The notes under the pieces are model-generated. The model searched no databases, was not told the origin of the DNA, and saw only the letters and a list, made by a program, of their open reading frames with translations. From contig JAGWVF010000005.1 of the NCBI GenBank assembly GCA_018971045.1, positions 10,764-74,763 of the forward strand: a DNA stretch of 64,000 bases, read 5' to 3'. Position 1 is the stretch's first letter. The number at the start of each line of letters is the position of its first letter. Source of the stretch: Patescibacteria group bacterium (GTDB lineage Bacteria > Patescibacteriota > Minisyncoccia > Phycocordibacterales > Phycocordibacteraceae). Made by a program: the position numbers and the translations under genes. Shown here piece by piece: positions 35,799-46,636 of this stretch.

Positions 35799-35837
35799 GG
35801 TTGAATTCTATACCGAATAAAGACTGCAAGAAACCAA

Positions 35838-35865
35838 GAAACGCCGCTAATTAGCGGCGTTTCTT
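35838..35865. terminator. hairpin terminator aagaaacgccgctaa/ttagcggcgtttctt
   Basis: Perfect 13-bp stem. It contains the stop codon of the small basic ORF. Confidence 0.45.
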
Positions 35866-35976
35866 GCTGCGGCGCTCGCGCAACGCGGCACCAGCAACGC
35901 TCCGAACGATCCGGCGCTTACCGTTTCTCAAAAGTCGGCTGGCTTCGCTTGCGACACGTTTACTTGTTTTTGCCAT
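35851..35976 (-). CDS. very basic 41-aa protein (MAKTSKRVASEASRLLRNGKRRIVRSVAGAALRERRSKKRR)
   Basis: Hand-translated. It lies between the Ubl/E1 operon and the terminator hairpin. It is absent from the ORF track because it is under 60 aa. Confidence 0.3.
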   Translation of the reverse strand: MAKTSKRVASEASRLLRNGKRRIVRSVAGAALRERRSKKRR

Positions 35977-37525: not shown

Positions 37526-37854
37526 ACGAAAGCGTCCAGGTGTCCATAAAGCATCTCGACCAACGTTTGCTCCTTCACAACGTCTTTCCACGAACAGGCG
37601 TGCCATGTTTGGCCGAGGAAGGGATATGCTTTCCAATTTGCGCCCTTACCTGGCACAATTCGTTCAACGAACAGTCGCGTCACATACCCCTCATGCTCTT
37701 GCGGAAGTAGTAGAGCGTTCATGGTCAACGTCGCGTCGCCCGACCTGAATCGAAGTCCGGTGAGCAGCACGAATGTGTACTGTCCTTCCGCCAGAATTTT
37801 CGCGTCATCGCAGACGTCGCGGAGGGGGACGAGTTGTGCTTCGTCGATGTTCAT
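37525..37854 (-). CDS. small partner protein, MoaE-like (MPT-synthase large-subunit-like) or E2-like
   Basis: 110 aa. TFVLLTGLRFRSGD…NALLLPQEH and PG…SWKDV resemble MoaE blocks (TFTGKVR…GD…ALTLEHY, WPGD…FWKRE). Uncertain. Confidence 0.4.
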
Positions 37855-38105
37855 GACGATCCACCACGACGCTTGTGAGATACAAACTTTTCGCCCCCGT
37901 GCACCTTCACTTCCTCGTCGTCCTTGAGCGGGAGCGTTTCCTTCCCCCTGATTTCGGCGAGCCCCTGATCTTCAGGGACGCCGAGCTCCTCCTTGAGCTT
38001 GCGCACTTTGTACGTGCCGGCGGGAATCTTCTTTTCGTGCCCGTTGATAAAAACCTCGACCTCCTTCTCTCGATGCCCGTGCTCTTCGTGTTCTTTCGCT
38101 GCCAT
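37851..38105 (-). CDS. ThiS/MoaD-like beta-grasp ubiquitin-like protein with C-terminal extension after GG
   Basis: 84 aa. VFINGHEKKIP…LKDDEEVKVHGG, then the tail EKFVSHKRRGGSS. His-rich N-terminus. The stop overlaps the next start. Confidence 0.6.
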   Translation of the reverse strand: MAAKEHEEHGHREKEVEVFINGHEKKIPAGTYKVRKLKEELGVPEDQGLAEIRGKETLPLKDDEEVKVHGGEKFVSHKRRGGSS

Positions 38106-38197
38106 ATATTATGTTGCTTCTGCTAACGGATAATGTGCGGATTTCCGCCCTTGTATTGTAAACCCATCGTGGTAACATTTCCTAGTAATCGACTATC

Positions 38198-38226
38198 CCA
38201 AAATGGTATTCACCGTTCCATTTTGG
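38198..38226. promoter_or_regulatory. perfect 9-bp inverted repeat CCAAAATGG-N11-CCATTTTGG in the divergent promoter region
   Basis: Lies between the Ubl operon (minus strand) and the XRE gene (plus strand). TATAGA is 5 nt downstream. Confidence 0.45.
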
Positions 38227-38261
38227 AAGTATAGATTACAACTTTTCCCCACACAATCTTC

Positions 38262-38633
38262 ATGGCGAAAAAGGATACTGGTACACTAGATGCGAGGGCG
38301 GCCGAAGCGGACGGCGATCTGAAAAAATATATTGGGCGTCAGATCGCCTCGATCCGGAAGGGCTCTGACCTGACGGCGCGGCAAGTTGCTGAGAAGCTGA
38401 AGGTCAAGCGGGAGACCCTGACGCAGATCGAGACGGGACGAAACAATCCGACCGCTTTGATGCTCTGGAAACTTGCATGCCTTTTTCAATGCGAAGTCTC
38501 AGATCTTTTTCCGCAAGTTCCCGAAGGTTTTGGTCTCACGACGTACACGAAATCCGACATGCGCAGAATCAAAAAGGTCGACCCCAGAGCAGTCGAGTGG
38601 GCTGGACGCATGTTCGGTGAGCCTAAGAAGTAA
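38262..38633 (+). CDS. XRE-family helix-turn-helix transcriptional regulator
   Basis: HTH LTARQVAEKLKVKRETLTQIETGRNNP. Confidence 0.75.
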   Translation: MAKKDTGTLDARAAEADGDLKKYIGRQIASIRKGSDLTARQVAEKLKVKRETLTQIETGRNNPTALMLWKLACLFQCEVSDLFPQVPEGFGLTTYTKSDMRRIKKVDPRAVEWAGRMFGEPKK

Positions 38634-38636
38634 TGT

Positions 38637-39149
38637 ATGCCTAACGATATAGAACGAAAAGCAGACGAGATACTCGATGCATCTGGCTTGCGCACGATAC
38701 CAGTTCCGATTGAGGAGATTGCGGAACACTTCAAGATGCATATTGGTCGTGCGCCGAGCAATGACTTCTCCGGTATGCTCATACGTAAAGATGGCGCTGC
38801 ACTCATCGGTGTTAACAGCACAGAGCATCCGCGCCGCCAACGCTTCACGATCGCGCACGAGATCGGACACTTTTTCCTACACCCTACAAAGAATGTTCTT
38901 GTTGATTATCGAAAGTCCTCTAAGGGTACCCACAGGACGCTCAAAGAAAAGGAGGCAGATATTTTCGCAGCTTCACTACTTATGCCAGCACGAGAATTGA
39001 CCAGAGATTTTATAAAAGTGGCTGGCGGCATACTTACAGATGAAGAGCAAAGAAAAAGCGTGGTGAGTCTTTTGGCTACTAAATATGAGGTGAGCGAAGA
39101 GGCAATGAATATTCGATTACTGGGATTGGGAATGCCAGAACGCGCGTAA
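38637..39149 (+). CDS. ImmA/IrrE-family zinc metallopeptidase
   Basis: HEIGHFFLH (HEXXH). COG2856-like. Immediately downstream of the XRE gene. Confidence 0.75.
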   Translation: MPNDIERKADEILDASGLRTIPVPIEEIAEHFKMHIGRAPSNDFSGMLIRKDGAALIGVNSTEHPRRQRFTIAHEIGHFFLHPTKNVLVDYRKSSKGTHRTLKEKEADIFAASLLMPARELTRDFIKVAGGILTDEEQRKSVVSLLATKYEVSEEAMNIRLLGLGMPERA

Positions 39150-39156
39150 GCCTCTC

Positions 39157-40476
39157 CTATTCCAAAGTCACTTTCCTATCCCTCATCACCAACCTGCTCT
39201 TGAGACACGCTAGCAGCTCCCGCTTCTCTGTAAGCGTCCCGTCGCGCAGCAAGTACTTCGCATAGCTGCGTACATCCACATCGGTATTGCGCTCCTTCGT
39301 TTTCATCCCGAGCACGCCGATGCGGAAGCGGTTGAATCGCGCGATCTCATCCTCGATCTTAGAGCGCATACCGATCTCATCCATGTCGACGGTGTCGAGC
39401 AAACCGGTTAGCTCCTCGATCAAATCTTTCTCATTGATCGGCGGATTCTTGCACTCGACACCCTTGCCGCGAGTGCACATGTAATAGACATGCCGATTGG
39501 TGCCGCCGTCCTTGAGCCGCTTGAATTTCTCGTCGGCGGTGATGCCGCTCTCGCAGTAGCCGCAGCATATCAGTTTTGTGAACGCGAATTCTTTGCTTTC
39601 TGTCTTGGGTATGTAGTGGTCTTGGATGGACGCCTGTACCCGGTCGAACAGCTCCTTGGCGATGATGGGCTGGTGCTTGCCCTGATACCAGTTGCCGCTC
39701 CCTGCCGGATACTCGAACTCGCCGTAGTAGAAAGGGTTGCGCAGGAGGAGGTAGACGTTCCCGAGGACGAGTGCTTTGCCGCTTTTCGTCTTGAAGCCGA
39801 TCTTTTTCAGCCATCGGTACACTTGCCGCCCGCTCCAGCTCTCGTTGCCGACTTTCTCGAAGATTTGCCGTACCGTGACCGACCGCTTCGGATCGATCCG
39901 CAGCTGCCCGCGCCGATCGAGGTGGTTTTCGTTGAGGTAGCCGGTCGGTGCGGGTCCCGGCCGCCAGCCCATCTCACATCGGGCCCGCAGACCGCGCTTC
40001 ACGTTGATGACTTTCTGATCGTTCTCCAGCTTCGCCTGCGATCCGAGAATCATGAGCATGAATTTCTCATTCGGGTTGTTCGTGAAGCGCTGCGAATAAG
40101 TGCGAATGTCGACGAGCTTGCCCTGGTCGATGAGATCGACGACTGCGCCAAGGTCTCCCGCGTTGCGTGAGAGCCGATCCGGCGCCCACGTGAGAATGCC
40201 GTTGAATTTGCCCTCTCGAATTTCTTTGAGCAGCTCGTTGTACACGGCACGCTGGCCGACCTCTTTGGAGGAGTGTGACTCGCGCTTGATCTCCGCGATA
40301 TGCAACCCCTCGCGCTCGGCGAGCGTCGTCATCTCCCGCACCTGCGAATCGATGGAGAGCGCCTGCTTGTCCTCTTCCTCGGTGCTCTTGCGGGCGTAAA
40401 GACAGTAGTTGACTGGTAATGGAACTGCGAGTGGTAATGGCCCAGAAACCCGATCTCTTGTGTAATGATTTCTCAT
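39157..40476 (-). CDS. large serine recombinase
   Basis: Resolvase catalytic domain (YARKSTEEE…SIDSQ), recombinase domain, and a C-terminal Cys-rich zinc ribbon (CCGYCE…C). Start trimmed to MRNHYT. Confidence 0.8.
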   Translation of the reverse strand: MRNHYTRDRVSGPLPLAVPLPVNYCLYARKSTEEEDKQALSIDSQVREMTTLAEREGLHIAEIKRESHSSKEVGQRAVYNELLKEIREGKFNGILTWAPDRLSRNAGDLGAVVDLIDQGKLVDIRTYSQRFTNNPNEKFMLMILGSQAKLENDQKVINVKRGLRARCEMGWRPGPAPTGYLNENHLDRRGQLRIDPKRSVTVRQIFEKVGNESWSGRQVYRWLKKIGFKTKSGKALVLGNVYLLLRNPFYYGEFEYPAGSGNWYQGKHQPIIAKELFDRVQASIQDHYIPKTESKEFAFTKLICCGYCESGITADEKFKRLKDGGTNRHVYYMCTRGKGVECKNPPINEKDLIEELTGLLDTVDMDEIGMRSKIEDEIARFNRFRIGVLGMKTKERNTDVDVRSYAKYLLRDGTLTEKRELLACLKSRLVMRDRKVTLE

Positions 40477-40576
40477 ATACCCCAAGGGATGACGCAACGG
40501 TCTGGGGAGTCCAGGCTCCCTCAAACTCGAGGAGTTGGTAACTCCGCTTCGCAAAACCCCGAGACTAAGTTAGGGT

Positions 40577-40798
40577 CTTGGACGGTAGACCCATTAAGAG
40601 CTATCATGTTCTATACAACTGAATATCAGTCGGCCTAAACCATAGTTTTCTATGGCATGGCCGAGAAGCCGTCCAAGGCAGAAAGCTCCTCGTCGGGAGC
40701 AACCTTGGACGGTCCCACCGGGAAACTGGTGGTGGGTGGCGCAAGCCATCGCCTGGCGGGGAGCTTTGTGTATTCCAGCCAGTAAAAACCGTCCAAGG
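40577..40798. repeat. four copies of CCGTCCAAGG in alternating orientation upstream of mod
   Basis: Copies at 40577-85 (reverse), 40669-78 (forward), 40704-13 (reverse), 40789-98 (forward, abutting the mod ATG). Confidence 0.45.
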
Positions 40799-40800
40799 TT

Positions 40801-42510
40801 ATGTCCGATATAAAACAAACCGAGCTCAACGCTCGGATCTCAGAATTAGAATCTGAGATCAAAAAATTGAAGAGTGCGAAAACCTACGGCCTCATTTGGG
40901 AAGATAAACCTGAGGACGTCATTTTGCAGTGCCGCGATAGTGTGCCGGTCCTCCGCGAGGTAAAGAATAAAAAGATTGTCGCCGATCCATCGTTACCGAC
41001 AAATCTGTTGATCGAGGGCGACAACTACCACTCACTCTCGGTCTTGAACTACACGCATCGCGGCCAATTCGACGTGATCTACGCCGACCCGCCGTATAAC
41101 ACCGGCAACAAGAGCTGGCGCTACAACAACGATTACATCGAAAAAGAGGACGAGTTTCGGCACAGCAAGTGGCTCTCGTATATCAATAAGAGGGTGCGCC
41201 TCGCCAAAAATCTTTTAAGCGATTCGGGCATTCTGATTTTCGCCATCGACGATTACGAAGCGCATACGCTTCGGCTCCTGCTCGACGAGATCATGGGCGA
41301 AGACAATCGGCTTGGCACCGTCGCCGTGGTACATAATCCGCGGGGACGGAACGACGATAGATTTTTCGCGACGCAGCACGAGTACATGCTCGTGTACGCG
41401 AAGGATAAAGATAAGGCCGTGCTCGGAAATTTCGACCTCACCGATGAAGAGCGCGGCCAGTACAAAAAGAGCGACGATATCTCATCGTATTCGGAGGCGT
41501 CGTTCATGCGTACCGGCAATAACTCCACTCCTCGGGAGCGTCCGAAACTTTTCTATCCGATTTTTTACAACCCGAAAACCCAGAAACTGTCGCTCAAAAA
41601 AGCGAAGGATTCGATTGAGCTTTTGCCGATCAACGAAGCAGGCGAAGAGAAAACGTGGCGCTGGGGCACGGCCACATTCGAGAAACTTTGCGATACGGAT
41701 CTGTTCGTCAAAACGGTAAAGGGCAAATACCGCATATTCAAGAAACGCCGCCTCACCGACGAGGCAGGAAAAAAGCCGAAATCGATTTGGTACAACCCGC
41801 GTTATGACGCCTCAACGTACGGCATCATGGTGCTTCAGGACATCTTTGGGCGAGGCAATCATTTTAACTATCCGAAGTCGTTGCTTTTGATGGAGGACAT
41901 CCTTGAGGTCACCTCGAAACCAGACTCGCTCGTTCTCGATTTCTTTGCCGGTTCGGGAACAACCGGTCACGCTGTGCTCAACCTCAATGAAAGAGACGGC
42001 GGCGCACGCCGGTTTATTCTATGTACAAACAACGAAAATAACATTTGCGAAGAAGTGACTTACGAACGAATCAAGCGCGTCGTAAAGGGCTACAAAGATC
42101 GCCGAGGCAACGCCGTCGATGGAGTGCTCGGCAATCTCGGTTACTACAAAACCGATCTCGTGAATATCGAAAAGCTGCAAACCATATCCGATACGGCCAG
42201 ACTCAAAATTACGTACCAGGCGGGCGAGATGATCGCGATCCGTGAAGACACGCTCGCAGAAAAGGAGAAAAATGAGTGGTGGCAAATATTCGAGGGGCAC
42301 GGTCGATCCACTGCTATTTATTTCAGAGAGGACAAATTGCGTCTCGGCGATCTCGTCAAAGAATTAAATGCCACTAGTAATCCTTCGACGCTCTATGTCT
42401 TCGGCTGGGGCAAGAACGACTACAAGAACGAGTACACCAGTCCGTTGATTCGCGTCGAGGATATCCCAGAGCCGATCATCGAAGTTTATAAGGAAATCAA
42501 TCGGCTCTAA
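40801..42510 (+). CDS. type III restriction-modification methyltransferase (Mod)
   Basis: DPPYNTG motif. The N-terminal LIWEDKPE…LLIEGDN block is typical of type III Mod. Confidence 0.8.
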   Translation: MSDIKQTELNARISELESEIKKLKSAKTYGLIWEDKPEDVILQCRDSVPVLREVKNKKIVADPSLPTNLLIEGDNYHSLSVLNYTHRGQFDVIYADPPYNTGNKSWRYNNDYIEKEDEFRHSKWLSYINKRVRLAKNLLSDSGILIFAIDDYEAHTLRLLLDEIMGEDNRLGTVAVVHNPRGRNDDRFFATQHEYMLVYAKDKDKAVLGNFDLTDEERGQYKKSDDISSYSEASFMRTGNNSTPRERPKLFYPIFYNPKTQKLSLKKAKDSIELLPINEAGEEKTWRWGTATFEKLCDTDLFVKTVKGKYRIFKKRRLTDEAGKKPKSIWYNPRYDASTYGIMVLQDIFGRGNHFNYPKSLLLMEDILEVTSKPDSLVLDFFAGSGTTGHAVLNLNERDGGARRFILCTNNENNICEEVTYERIKRVVKGYKDRRGNAVDGVLGNLGYYKTDLVNIEKLQTISDTARLKITYQAGEMIAIREDTLAEKEKNEWWQIFEGHGRSTAIYFREDKLRLGDLVKELNATSNPSTLYVFGWGKNDYKNEYTSPLIRVEDIPEPIIEVYKEINRL

Positions 42511-42511
42511 T

Positions 42512-44830
42512 ATGATTGCTCTCAAACCATTTCAAGAGACCGCTGTATCCAAGCTCAAGAACGAGTTTCTGTCCCTCTGGAAATCCTCGCGCATAAATAT
42601 TCCGCTGGTGTTTAAATCGCCGACTGGCTCAGGCAAGACGATCATGCTCGCGCAGTTCCTGCGCGATCTCGTCGGCGACCCACGCTTCCAGGGAAACGAT
42701 GTCGCGTTTATATGGTTCTCGTTCAGCGAGGATTCGTATCTGCAAAGCAAGAAACGGCTCTTTAGGTATTACGGCGGCGCGTCTGAACTCGATCTTCTCG
42801 ACCTCAACGATCTCACGCGCGGCAAGCTGGAAAAGAACAATGTCTTTTTTATCAATTGGCAGAAAATCAAAGGACGCTCGAAAGAGAGCCGCAAACTTCG
42901 CCGCCATAACGAGTGGGGCCATACGTTCGACAATTTCATTAATCGCTCCCATGCCGACGGCCGACAACTCGTCGTAATAATCGATGAAGAACACATCGGT
43001 TCGGATACCGATCTCGCCCTCGAGGTCGTCGAGGGGTTGATCAAGCCGCGCATTACCGTCCGCGTGTCGGCCACACCAAAATATATTCCGAATGCCGAGG
43101 AAATCTCCGACAAACGCAGCGGATTCCTGCAGGTCAAGCGTGATGAGGTGATTGAGTCTGGCCTCATCAAGGAAAAAGTCGTGTTTCAGACCGAGGAAGA
43201 TCTCGCGCGAAAAGAATTCAAGAAGATGGATCAGGACGATATCCTGCTTGAGCTCGCGTTCAAAAAGCGCCTCGGCCTCGCCAAACACTACAAGGCGTTG
43301 GACGTCGACGTTAATCCGCTTGTCTTAATCCAGCTGCCCAACGACGATCAGGCGGGCAAAGGCACCGGAACAAACAAGCAAGACATCGTCGTCGCTTTCT
43401 TGAAGCAACACGGCGTACGCAATGAGGAAATCGCAATCTGGCTGTCGCAAGAAAAAATGAATCTTGATGACATAGAGAAAAATGATTCACCAGTTTCGTT
43501 TCTTCTTTTCAAACAAGCTGCTGCGACGGGATGGGATTGTCCTCGGGCAAGCGTGCTGGTCATGTTCCGTGAGATCAAGAATCCGACCTTCGCAATCCAG
43601 ACGGTCGGCAGGATTTTGCGAATGCCGTTCGGTACCCACTTCGCGCAACCCGAACTCAACATTGGATATTTGTATACCAACTACAGGCGTGATGAAGTGC
43701 TTGCCGAGTATGCGCGATCTAAAAGCGACAATCGGCCGGCTATTAATGCAAGTTATCGAAAGCAGGACGTAACACCGGTGCGGGTGGATTCGGTATTCAT
43801 GAGTCGTACCGACTACAACGACCTCGGCGACAGTTTCCAAAGTACGTTTGAGAAAATTGCTGACGGCTATTTCGGATTGACTACAAGTCAGGGTGCAATG
43901 AACTCGCTGGAATCGAAAGGACTTGCTATCGGAGCGACTGTGACAAATGGACTCATCGTCGATGTCGAGATCGACGATTACGACAACTTTACAAACGAGC
44001 TGCTGACAGAGGGCAGCAGCCACGATCAAGAGATGTCCCAGTACGATCTTGAGCGCCTCTACAATTTGCTCTGCTTCAAGCTGATCGCAAAGCAGGTGGA
44101 TGAGAATAAGAAATTCGCACCGGAACGCTCGTGGGGCAAATTGAAAACAGCTCTAAACGTATGGCTATCAAAGTATATCGGGGATTCGCGTCACGAACTG
44201 TATACCGTTATCGTTTTTGATTTACTGAATCCCAACGGCGTACTCGCGCCGCTCATCGGTGATGCGCTCGCGGCATACCGCCCTATTCGCGAGCACGAGG
44301 TCAACAAAAAATCGGAACGTGCAAAGCGAACAGAGACCATTGAGATTCCCCGCGACTCACTTTTCTATACCGATCAGTTCAAGGAAATGAAAGTGTCGAA
44401 ATCCGCCATGACCCCCTTCTTTATCGAGAAGGACTATCAGGGAGAAGATAACGAAAAGGAATTTATCGCATTCCTTGAAGTGCACAAACGGGTTGTGTGG
44501 TGGTATAAGAACGGCGACGCCGGTAGCGAGTTTTTCTCGATCTCGTATCGCAACCCCGACGAGAATAAAGAAAAGCTTTTTTATCCCGACTGGATCGTAA
44601 AGACCAAAGATACCATTTGGGTAATCGATACGAAAAAGGGCGCGACGGCTGAACTTTCTGACACGAAGTACAAGGCCGAAGCGCTCCAGCAATGGCTCGC
44701 GACGCATAAAAATTTTCAAGGCGGCATTGCAGTTCAAGACGGTCCTAACGGCTGGAAGCTCAACAACTCTAAAACCTACTCGTATACGCAGTCGCTGAAC
44801 GGTTGGTCGCGTTTGGCAGATCTGTTTTAG
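42512..44830 (+). CDS. type III restriction endonuclease / helicase subunit (Res)
   Basis: SF2 helicase motifs (SPTGSGKT, VIIDEEH). Starts 1 nt after mod. Confidence 0.8.
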   Translation: MIALKPFQETAVSKLKNEFLSLWKSSRINIPLVFKSPTGSGKTIMLAQFLRDLVGDPRFQGNDVAFIWFSFSEDSYLQSKKRLFRYYGGASELDLLDLNDLTRGKLEKNNVFFINWQKIKGRSKESRKLRRHNEWGHTFDNFINRSHADGRQLVVIIDEEHIGSDTDLALEVVEGLIKPRITVRVSATPKYIPNAEEISDKRSGFLQVKRDEVIESGLIKEKVVFQTEEDLARKEFKKMDQDDILLELAFKKRLGLAKHYKALDVDVNPLVLIQLPNDDQAGKGTGTNKQDIVVAFLKQHGVRNEEIAIWLSQEKMNLDDIEKNDSPVSFLLFKQAAATGWDCPRASVLVMFREIKNPTFAIQTVGRILRMPFGTHFAQPELNIGYLYTNYRRDEVLAEYARSKSDNRPAINASYRKQDVTPVRVDSVFMSRTDYNDLGDSFQSTFEKIADGYFGLTTSQGAMNSLESKGLAIGATVTNGLIVDVEIDDYDNFTNELLTEGSSHDQEMSQYDLERLYNLLCFKLIAKQVDENKKFAPERSWGKLKTALNVWLSKYIGDSRHELYTVIVFDLLNPNGVLAPLIGDALAAYRPIREHEVNKKSERAKRTETIEIPRDSLFYTDQFKEMKVSKSAMTPFFIEKDYQGEDNEKEFIAFLEVHKRVVWWYKNGDAGSEFFSISYRNPDENKEKLFYPDWIVKTKDTIWVIDTKKGATAELSDTKYKAEALQQWLATHKNFQGGIAVQDGPNGWKLNNSKTYSYTQSLNGWSRLADLF

Positions 44831-45589: not shown

Positions 45590-46636
45590 TTATTCCTTCA
45601 GCCAGAACCAGAATCGGTTCCGCAATTCTTCCGCCAATTCATATGCATCCGCGTGAGACAAAACACCGAGGTACGAGCGCAAGGAGCCAGACAGGGTTTC
45701 TTCCCTAATATCCCCCTTCTTGTATGCAGATACATTTTCCCGCAGCTTGCGAAACATGCGATGCTCAGTCTTTTTTCTCAAAGCAATATGATGCGGCAGG
45801 ATAACGTAACCCAAAAAATCGATGCCTTGTCCATATGGCCGCAGAATGACTTTTCTGGGGTGAAGCTCCAGGCGGAGCCGTTGGGCCAAGAATGCACGTA
45901 TCGGTGGCAGCAAGCCTTCGAGGTACCTCTTATCGCACGATACTATTACAAAGTCGTCCGTGTACCGCGCATAATTCTTTACGCGCAGCCCGTGCTTGAT
46001 GAATTGATCGAACTCGTTCATGTAAATGTTCGCGAACAGCTGCGACGTAAGATTGCCAATGGGTATACCGCGTCGTTCAAAGAGCATAGCACTTGTCGAA
46101 AAGCTCTCAACGATTTCTCGCATGAGCCACATGGTGTCATCATCGCGGATTCTCTTCTGAAGAATCGCAAGCAATACATCGTGGTCGATCGAATCGAAGA
46201 ATTTTCGCACGTCGCACTTGAGCGCCCAACATTTCCTCGAGCCGTTCCGGCTCTCAGCTCGCAGCATGTCGGCTACGCTTTTCACACCCTTGTGCGTACC
46301 TTTCCCGATCCGGCACGAAAAGGATGTGGAAATAAAGGTGGGTTCAAAAATTGGATTCAGCACTCTGAAAATTGCGTGATGCAAGACACGATCCCTAACT
46401 ACCGCTTTATGAATGCGACGCAGCTTTGGATCGCGGATCCAAAAGCCGTAATAGCGACCGTGTTTGTACGTTTTATCGTGCAATTCGCGGCGCAATTTAA
46501 AAATTTCTTTTTCGACACGCTGTTCAAATTCGGCGACGTCGACTTTGTTCCGCTTGTCGCTTTTGAATATATCCCACGCCGCAAAAAGATTCTGTGCGGA
46601 CATTATTAGCGGAAAAATATTTTTACGTGTCTTCAT
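45590..46636 (-). CDS. reverse transcriptase of a diversity-generating retroelement
   Basis: RT motifs: LKCDVRKFFDSIDH (A), GIPIGNLTSQLFANIYMNEFD (B'), YARYTDDFVI (C). An alternative start MSAQNL is at 46603. Confidence 0.8.
   Translation of the reverse strand: MKTRKNIFPLIMSAQNLFAAWDIFKSDKRNKVDVAEFEQRVEKEIFKLRRELHDKTYKHGRYYGFWIRDPKLRRIHKAVVRDRVLHHAIFRVLNPIFEPTFISTSFSCRIGKGTHKGVKSVADMLRAESRNGSRKCWALKCDVRKFFDSIDHDVLLAILQKRIRDDDTMWLMREIVESFSTSAMLFERRGIPIGNLTSQLFANIYMNEFDQFIKHGLRVKNYARYTDDFVIVSCDKRYLEGLLPPIRAFLAQRLRLELHPRKVILRPYGQGIDFLGYVILPHHIALRKKTEHRMFRKLRENVSAYKKGDIREETLSGSLRSYLGVLSHADAYELAEELRNRFWFWLKE

Follow-up and report, generated by a model that had tools for sequence, protein, structure and literature searches.

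The 64,000-nucleotide (nt) stretch of contig JAGWVF010000005.1 (assembly GCA_018971045.1) from a Patescibacteria group bacterium, to which we refer as the window, carries two adjacent plus-strand genes that encode an XRE-family helix-turn-helix (HTH) protein and a short zinc metallopeptidase of the ImmA/IrrE/CapP type (M78). Divergent from this pair runs a minus-strand operon (38105 down to 36010) encoding, in order, a candidate ubiquitin-like protein (Ubl), a small E2-like candidate, a JAB/JAMM peptidase, a ThiF-family E1 and a hydrophobic protein in which two transmembrane (TM) helices are read by eye. The two transcription units are separated by a 156-bp gap (38106-38261), and within this gap lies a perfect inverted repeat that we regard as a candidate operator. 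The initial annotation had placed an HEIGH peptidase 3 nt after the XRE gene and had likened the two genes to ImmR/ImmA and CapH/CapP. The 3-nt gap, the HEIGH motif and the Peptidase_M78 domain match (Table 1) bear out the first of these statements, and the gene content, gene order and divergence are those published for CapH/CapP beside the ubiquitination-like Bil and Bub operons (PMC10557695; PMC11601596). The interpretation as such a pair thus agrees with what is already in print on loci of this type.

The protease contains the catalytic set H74-E75-x-x-H78 plus E104, which is invariant across 36 homologues, and the same homologues have in common an RRQRFTIAHE motif that is also seen in IrrE. 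The capP hidden Markov model (HMM) of PADLOC matches the protein at 1.2e-34 over model positions 3-153 of 242, and its sequence matches in the PDB are IrrE (6.7e-7), PprI and Thauera CapP (8.9e-5), with the IrrE alignment stopping at residue 184 of the 301-residue chain. An AlphaFold2 (AF2) model with a predicted local distance difference test score (pLDDT) of 88 comprises a three-stranded sheet and helices only. The best fold match of this model in the PDB is Thauera CapP, 7T5T (E 3e-7; query TM-score 0.65, target TM-score 0.42), followed by PprI, including its complex with single-stranded DNA (ssDNA), 8SLN, and by IrrE. The 170-residue length, the points at which the capP and IrrE alignments end and the AF2 model all indicate that the protease has no GAF domain. 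The cysteine-switch loop is likewise absent from the 36-homologue alignment, in which the segment from HExxH to E104 contains neither a Cys nor an insertion. As modeled, the protein consists of the peptidase domain and a helical linker only, and its architecture is as much ImmA-like as CapP-like.

The XRE protein was modeled from an alignment built of database homologues (AF2, pLDDT 78). From its N terminus, which is disordered, the model continues into an HTH domain (residues 18-82), a linker and a pair of C-terminal helices (residues 97-106 and 108-118; pLDDT 65-78). These helices are the presumed dimerization and cleavage region of the model, and two residues of this C-terminal part, W113 and F118, are conserved among XRE homologues. 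With its HTH domain ahead of a C-terminal element of two helices, the protein has the general layout of CapH, DdrO and ImmR. A fold search found the HTH domain to resemble the DNA-binding domains of DdrO, ImmR and CapH equally, and controller (C) proteins were not separated from them either.

The inverted repeat in the shared intergenic gap, CCAAAATGG-N11-CCATTTTGG, is present as the initial annotation had described it, with perfect 9-bp arms at 38198-38206 and 38218-38226 and an 11-nt spacer. Its center at 38212 is 50 nt upstream of the XRE ATG and 107 nt away from the Ubl start codon. The dyad pattern occurs once in the 64-kb window with up to two mismatches allowed and in none of 100 shuffles, and a relaxed core, AATG[GT]-N7..17-[CA]CATT, has its single match in the window at the same site. 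No extra copies of the dyad or its core were found in the window, including the regions upstream of the recombinase and restriction-modification genes. Perfect 9-bp inverted repeats with loops of up to 20 nt give 64 nine-mer hits window-wide, which we grouped into ~22 distinct repeats, versus ~9 hits in Markov shuffles, and most of those in the window are GC-rich terminator-like hairpins. By our own scaling, the number of such repeats expected within this 156-bp gap is ~0.02. A hairpin or terminator reading of the dyad itself was rejected: the arms are rich in A and T, the loop spans 11 nt, no T-run follows the repeat, and the stem formed in ssDNA reaches just -7.6 kcal/mol. An Rfam scan of positions 37900-38700 returned nothing credible.

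For comparison, we collected contigs that encode M78 homologues of 58-79% identity, whose loci are denoted by L and a number. The divergent layout, with the Ubl, E2-like, JAB, E1 and TM genes on one side and the XRE-M78 pair on the other, occurs in seven distinct lineages when the window is counted (the window with its copy L001, L083/84, L085/86, L088, the P0009 contig, L089 and L091-93). Among these same-layout lineages, the M78 identity is 61-79%, and the operon encodes a Ubl of 75-84 residues, an E2-like protein of 110-116, a JAB protein of ~170, a ThiF-type E1 of 266-274 and, usually, a membrane protein of 63-67 residues. In L094-96 (L094 1215-2271), by comparison, an XRE-M78 pair with 58% M78 identity diverges from genes for an LTD-domain protein and a Peptidase_M23 protein; the regulator is therefore a portable module.

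The intergenic regions of 12 loci were aligned in two alignments (A1 and A2). In every aligned locus the distance from the dyad to the XRE start is equal, and the arms retain (A)ATG(G/T) ... (C/A)CAT(T), with the middle of the spacer free to vary. The conserved core in the window can be written as ATGGTAt..(N5-7)..tTCCAT; ATGG(T)A..T(A)CCAT is kept in relatives, and some changes hit both arms. For instance, ATGG..CCAT is changed to ATGT..ACAT in L089 and L091, and AC..GT stands in L088, L089 and L094 where the window has CC..GG. In L089, the arms of the dyad, TACCAAATGT...ACATTTCGTA, are complementary at 8 of 9 positions; here the inner G is replaced by T and its partner C by A. A pair count over 8 distinct sequences or lineages gave 81.8% complementary cells, versus 27-43% when the partner position was slid by 1-3 nt, and four dyad pairs show changes on both sides. 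Our case for dyad conservation is built on this slid-partner control and on the contrast of a variable spacer with conserved arms, instead of on a shuffle test. The functional core is probably ~19-21 bp, with the outer CCAAA/TTTGG as an extension.

L094, as well as L095 and L096, retains the dyad together with the XRE-M78 pair beside unrelated cargo, and this assigns the site to the regulator. GGTAT/ATACC dyads, arranged differently, occupy the equivalent region in more distant relatives (L097, L098, L006 and L004), examples being ATGGTATcttgaATACC and AATACCcactGGTATT in L097 and TATACCctttGGTATA in L006; relatives with such dyads have the recognition helix SREAVTHIE in place of the KRETLTQIE of the window. 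The inner arms of the window dyad, ATGGTAT ... TTCCAT, have a half-site in common with these GGTAT/ATACC dyads. The initial annotation had suggested looking for the repeat upstream of homologous cassettes; in every related locus that was readable it is kept, being neither absent nor unconserved there. By analogy with characterized pairs, we infer that the XRE protein would bind this conserved dyad in the shared promoter region.

The placement of the promoter fared differently. The repeat had been proposed to overlap the -35/-10 region of the XRE gene, with TATAGA as the -10 element, but TATAGA (38230-38235) is 3 nt downstream of the repeat and not under it. It is also unconserved, with relatives showing CGTGGA, ACTGGA, TCTGGG or ACTAGA at this place. 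A sigma-70 promoter and terminator scan of 37800-39400 did not find a promoter. A better-conserved candidate for the XRE promoter than TATAGA is the element TTGTAT-N16-TAACAT, whose TTG(T/C)AT and TAACAT blocks are kept in all 12 loci of the alignment, among them the one with other cargo; its score is under the threshold of the sigma-70 scan, and it is weakly sigma-70-like. Directly before the XRE ATG, a GGATTACAAC-TTTTCC-CACAAT block is conserved in all loci. On the Ubl side of the gap, the potential to form a small GC hairpin is preserved in relatives with other sequences (GCGGAtctcTCCGC, GCGGagtttcCCGC and GCGCaattcaGCGC), and this hairpin (38137-38148) may be a 5'-untranslated region element of the Ubl mRNA. 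A second, 10-bp inverted repeat within the XRE open reading frame (ORF), GGCGATCTGA-N16-TCAGATCGCC (38313-38348), was considered and set aside: it comes from reverse-complementary codons for GDL and QIA. In L088, two synonymous changes (CTG to TTG and CAG to CAA) leave 9 of the 10 pairs intact. The repeat is probably a coincidence; a role as an mRNA hairpin is possible.

The same protease family recurs far from the Patescibacteria. A genome scan (GTDB species genomes, L097-L176) yielded 80 relatives of the protease, all 80 of them 160-187 residues long and lacking a GAF domain. They span many phyla and occur beside operons of the cyclic oligonucleotide-based antiphage signaling system (CBASS), Bil type II, and Bub types I and II. 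Their divergent neighbors include JAB-E1 and E2-E1 fusions (14 loci), SMODS CD-NTases (10), Multi_ubiq (7), DUF6527 (7) and patatin (7) proteins, and ThiF E1s of 461-550 residues with Metal_CEHH and JAB (5-6). The unfused cassette is also linked to a short M78 gene in metagenome-assembled genomes of Terriglobales, Syntrophobacteraceae and gammaproteobacteria, as well as in Dyella and a soil contig (L109, L110, L135, L128 and L011). L109, L110, L128 and L011 have the divergent layout of the window; in L135 the cassette is downstream of the M78 gene and not divergently upstream of the pair. On a Rhizobium plasmid, a 105-residue HTH protein and a 178-residue ImmA/IrrE protein are divergent from a four-gene operon (98, 141, 155 and 452 residues) that is Bil-like in size and order. 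Short homologues with up to 37% identity to the protease are annotated as antirepressors in temperate phages. The short protease is thus a widespread branch, and the published CapP catalogues probably include short proteins because CapP was identified by PF06114 annotation (PMC10557695).

The genes of the divergent operon overlap by 4 nt throughout, the E2-like gene with both of its neighbors, and the operon is therefore one translationally coupled unit. The Ubl ends with GG plus two residues in most relatives, as RRGGSS, RQGGSS or RQGGSA, and with RHGSSS in the L083 and L085 homologues. The position of the 110-residue protein between Ubl and JAB suggests that it would serve as the E2. Its invariant residues are C15, H54, Y57, TRLF, W84, S88-W89 and H105, and invariant Ser88 comes 34 residues after invariant His54, a spacing that recalls the Bub E2. 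In the JAB protein, with its length counted from the ATG used in relatives, E28, H94-x-H96-x-H98, S107 and D110 are invariant; the published active-site residues of BubC are E28 and D104. The closest solved relative of the E1 is the E1 half of Citrobacter BubCD (7.3e-18, versus 4.6e-8 for ThiF), and its Tyr188, presumably in the crossover loop, is conserved in every homologue that we collected. The 2-TM gene is kept in relatives at the same position, with products of 63-67 residues and 47-56% identity in L083, L086 and L088.

Domain searches of the cargo were largely silent. The Ubl, E2-like, JAB and 64-residue proteins and a downstream 72-residue ORF have no match in Pfam (E-value limit 10), NCBIfam or PADLOC. 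Searching the PDB by single sequence, or by profile for the JAB and E2-like families, gave no meaningful match for Ubl, JAB or the E2-like protein, and the fold assignments of the latter two therefore rest on motifs and gene position. DUF6527/BubE (PF20137), which is readily found at the loci of distant relatives, has no match in any ORF of the operon or in the 72-residue ORF, and the E2-like protein matches neither Metal_CEHH nor Prok-E2 in Pfam. The cassette is thus a fully unfused, Bub/Bil-intermediate architecture without BubE that fits neither the published Bub types nor Bil, and the published Bub catalogue, having been built on DUF6527, would not contain it. After the 2-TM gene, a very basic 41-residue ORF (MAKTSKRVASEASRLLRNGKRR...; 35835-35975, minus strand) ends within a perfect palindrome of 32 bp (35835-35866), behind which the sequence is T-rich; the palindrome is likely the operon terminator.

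Table 1. Features at the XRE-M78 locus and in its surroundings (positions in the window).
Feature	Position	Strand	Basis or remark
XRE-family repressor (CapH/ImmR-like), predicted, 123 aa	38262..38633	+	HTH_3 3e-12
Short ImmA/IrrE/CapP-type Zn metallopeptidase, 170 aa	38637..39149	+	Peptidase_M78 6.6e-22, HEIGH
Candidate operator dyad CCAAAATGG-N11-CCATTTTGG	38198..38226	none	Inverted repeat read in the sequence, conserved in relatives
Promoter-like element TTGTAT-N16-TAACAT	38151..38178	+	Conserved blocks
Small GC hairpin GCGGA-TT-TCCGC	38137..38148	none	32 nt from the Ubl start codon
Ubl candidate, 84 aa, end ...KRRGGSS	37851..38105	-	Di-Gly plus two-residue tail; first gene
Small E2-like candidate, 110 aa	37522..37854	-	Position between Ubl and JAB
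JAB/JAMM peptidase, 171 aa	37010..37525	-	JAMM motif read in the alignment
Single-domain E1 (ThiF family), 270 aa	36201..37013	-	ThiF 1.5e-27
64-aa hydrophobic protein, two TM helices	36010..36204	-	By eye; last operon gene
Large serine recombinase (Resolvase, Recombinase, Zn_ribbon_recom)	39157-40554	-	Domain matches; convergent with the M78 gene
Type III methylase mod (N6_N4_Mtase)	40801-42510		Domain match
Type III restriction gene res (ResIII)	42512-44830		Domain match
Reverse transcriptase (RVT_1)	45590-46636	-	Domain match

Beyond the M78 gene, a large serine recombinase gene is followed by genes for a type III restriction-modification system and a reverse transcriptase (Table 1). A homologue of the recombinase accompanies the regulator in L002, L004, L006-8 and L088, and the region therefore looks like a mobile defense island that may be recombinase-borne. 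The gap between the recombinase and methylase genes (40555-40800) contains the motif CTTGGACGG / CCGTCCAAG four times, its orientation alternating from copy to copy, and these copies may be binding sites of the recombinase or of a controller protein.

CapH/CapP is among the closest characterized systems. The CBASS operon that diverges from capH is repressed by CapH at a conserved site within the promoter region common to both, and CapH requires its C-terminal domain for dimerization and DNA binding; when ssDNA is present, CapP cuts CapH within this domain (Lau et al., bioRxiv 10.1101/2022.04.27.489752). CapH/CapP-like pairs also adjoin ubiquitin-related operons, namely those of types 6a and 6e (bioRxiv 10.1101/2022.04.27.489752). 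They lie divergently upstream of 15% of CEHH/6C operons (Bil type II, bilABCD, with the order Ubl-E2-DUB-E1) (Chambers et al., PMC10557695), and CapH and CapP occur together at 168 of 544 (31%) Bub operons (Ye et al., PMC11601596). The association of CapH/CapP with ubiquitination-like operons is thus already in the literature. Like these pairs, the one in the window has an XRE gene followed by a PF06114 gene on the same strand, is divergent from a defense-type operon with which it shares a promoter region, and encodes the HExxH plus Glu catalytic set; its protease has capP as its best HMM and 7T5T as its best structural match. The differences lie in the protease, which has 170 residues here rather than ~290 and lacks the C-terminal GAF domain and the cysteine-switch loop, and in the operator, a 29-bp dyad here, whose sequence is unrelated to the 22-bp site of E. 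coli MS115-1. In canonical CapP and in IrrE, the peptidase and GAF domains flank a groove that binds ssDNA, and both contribute contacts (Calloji et al., PMC13228613; Lu et al., PMC10904395), the HTH domain of CapH has been modeled docking on the GAF domain, and activation is coupled to the cysteine-switch loop (PMC13228613; PMC10904395), a loop that occurs in about one third of CapPs. Because the GAF domain is absent here, neither the peptidase-GAF ssDNA groove nor the CapH-docking GAF surface exists in this protein.

The pair also resembles ImmR/ImmA of the Bacillus subtilis element ICEBs1 and the repressor/protease of phi105, in which a short, essentially single-domain M78 antirepressor, ~169 residues in ImmA, is encoded directly after the XRE repressor. 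Further features in common are an adjacent site-specific recombinase and divergence of the pair from its target genes, which here are presumed ones. However, the recombinase here is a large serine enzyme on the opposite strand and not a co-transcribed tyrosine integrase, the divergent genes encode Ubl, E2-like, JAB and E1 proteins and not excision or conjugation functions, and a single dyad is seen where ImmR uses several sites. With DdrO/IrrE (PprI) of Deinococcus, the locus has in common the logic, here proposed, of a protease that cleaves an XRE repressor, the RQRFT(I/L)AHE motif, IrrE/PprI as second-best structural matches of the protease and DdrO among the fold matches of the XRE protein. 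IrrE, in contrast, has a GAF domain, and irrE and ddrO are not an adjacent pair serving one neighboring operon; they govern a dispersed regulon through radiation/desiccation response motif (RDRM) sites.

The cargo, for its part, is related to both Bub and Bil. The E1 half of Citrobacter BubCD is the nearest relative of its E1, the order Ubl-E2-peptidase-E1 is that of bilABCD and BubAB-BubCD, the Ubl ends with GG plus a short tail, and the JAB protein has E28 and the JAMM motif. The invariant Ser of the E2-like protein and the conserved Tyr of the E1 recall the oxyester chemistry of Bub. Unlike Bub type I, in which Ubl-E2 and JAB-E1 are fused, the four proteins are separate here, and a conserved 64-residue two-TM protein stands at the position of the absent DUF6527/BubE. 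Unlike the multi-domain (IAD-AAD-CYS) BilD, the E1 is a single ThiF domain of 270 residues. The E2-like protein differs from the E2s of both systems in matching neither Prok-E2 nor Metal_CEHH, and it has an invariant Cys15 besides.

We consider it likely that the XRE protein and the M78 protease form a protease-controlled repressor switch of the CapH/CapP - ImmR/ImmA - DdrO/IrrE class. In such a switch, the XRE protein would dimerize through its C-terminal two-helix element and, as a dimer, bind the dyad centered at 38212 in the intergenic region common to both units. Bound there, it would repress its own operon and, most likely, also the divergent operon of Ubl, E2-like, JAB, E1 and 2-TM genes, predicted to be a Bub-like, ubiquitination-type conjugation system in a defense island. 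Upon a stress signal, the co-transcribed Zn peptidase would cut the repressor in or near its C-terminal domain; with the loss of dimerization and DNA binding, both transcription units would be induced. DNA binding, cleavage and the promoter or promoters controlled are drawn by analogy with the characterized pairs, and we infer that repression would extend beyond autoregulation to the Ubl operon.

Several findings weigh against this interpretation or parts of it. At 50 nt from the XRE gene and 107 nt from the Ubl gene, the dyad is nearer to the former, and it is kept beside the regulator where the cargo is a different one, so that autoregulation alone would explain its conservation. The covariation shuffle control was not significant, with 57 of 500 shuffles of the 8 sequences reaching the observed score, and dyad covariation is therefore no more than suggestive. 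The match of the XRE protein to the capH HMM of PADLOC is marginal (3.3e-3). With the GAF domain and the cysteine switch missing, substrate docking and activation of the protease may differ from canonical CapP. Finally, the phage antirepressor homologues (37%) are about as similar to the protease as are the defense-linked relatives from other phyla (34-51%).

The look of a mobile defense island raises the possibility of a mobile-element immunity module in the strict ImmR/ImmA sense, in which the pair would control excision or transfer through the adjacent serine recombinase and the Ubl operon would be a passenger. The ImmA-sized protease (170 residues, no GAF) agrees with such a module, as do the recombinase gene that abuts the M78 gene, its homologues (55-83% identity) adjoining or a few kb off in L002, L004, L006-L008 and L088, and the antirepressor annotation of short homologues in temperate phages. 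Nevertheless, the recombinase gene is convergent and not co-transcribed, its upstream region (40555-40800) is free of the dyad, and a homologue was not seen in the close relatives L083, L085, L089 and L091. Because, in addition, the divergent genes are a conjugation-enzyme cassette and not excision or transfer genes, and members of the regulator family adjoin CBASS, Bil and Bub operons across 80 genomes, we regard this explanation as improbable. We think it similarly improbable that the XRE protein controls just the XRE-M78 operon, with the Ubl operon under an independent, unregulated promoter. The intergenic gap is just 156 bp long and consists nearly entirely of conserved blocks, a CapH site upstream of the -35 element of the cargo promoter was sufficient for repression (bioRxiv 10.1101/2022.04.27.489752), and the persistent divergent linkage of the regulator family to defense operons argues for a functional connection. 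These points outweigh, in our judgment, the 50-nt distance of the dyad from the XRE ATG, its moving with the regulator when the cargo differs (L094) and the failure of the sigma-70 scan to recognize any promoter overlapping the dyad on the Ubl side.

Xre-COG2856 pairs were once predicted as toxin-antitoxin systems, and the two genes could in principle be an addiction pair that stabilizes the island and has no role in regulating its neighbors. The protease and the HTH protein do match the model of a fused HTH-M78 "spr1629 family repressor/antitoxin" (1.8e-13 and 9.8e-5), both match RmrA models of PADLOC, and the molecule in PDB entry 7T5T is named "CapP toxin." The spr1629 model matches, however, are partial and fall far short of the curated cut-offs. 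CapP, IrrE and ImmA, the relatives that have been solved and tested, are repressor-cleaving proteases, and the conserved operator and divergent layout fit transcriptional control. An addiction pair therefore strikes us as very improbable, well behind the two explanations above.

Returning to the repressor switch, its trigger is the less certain part. Because the GAF domain and the cysteine switch are absent, ssDNA sensing cannot simply be assumed, and by analogy with CapP and IrrE we give ssDNA or DNA damage slightly less than an even chance of being the signal. The trigger may be ssDNA sensed in a different manner, a partner protein, as for ImmA, or something else. A broader and more speculative proposal, which we consider rather unlikely as a whole, is that the short protease represents a widespread minimal CapP-like branch whose trigger does not act through the groove; the conjugation system itself might provide the signal, or else a phage product or a partner protein. 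In the present genome, which belongs to the candidate phyla radiation (Patescibacteria), it would then be part of a portable operator-regulator cassette that drives an uncatalogued, unfused, Bub/Bil-intermediate Ubl system with a membrane protein replacing BubE.

The mechanistic work on CapP has all been done on the long GAF form, and the short form found here and in 80 further genomes is without a known activation mechanism, a modest but real gap. The presumably regulated cassette, in turn, falls outside the DUF6527-based Bub catalogue. The locus probably extends the CapH/CapP-type switch and ubiquitination-like defense cassettes to the Patescibacteria, whose genomes are small and whose defense regulation is little studied, and its candidate operator, for which a comparative consensus is now available, is concrete enough to be tested directly.

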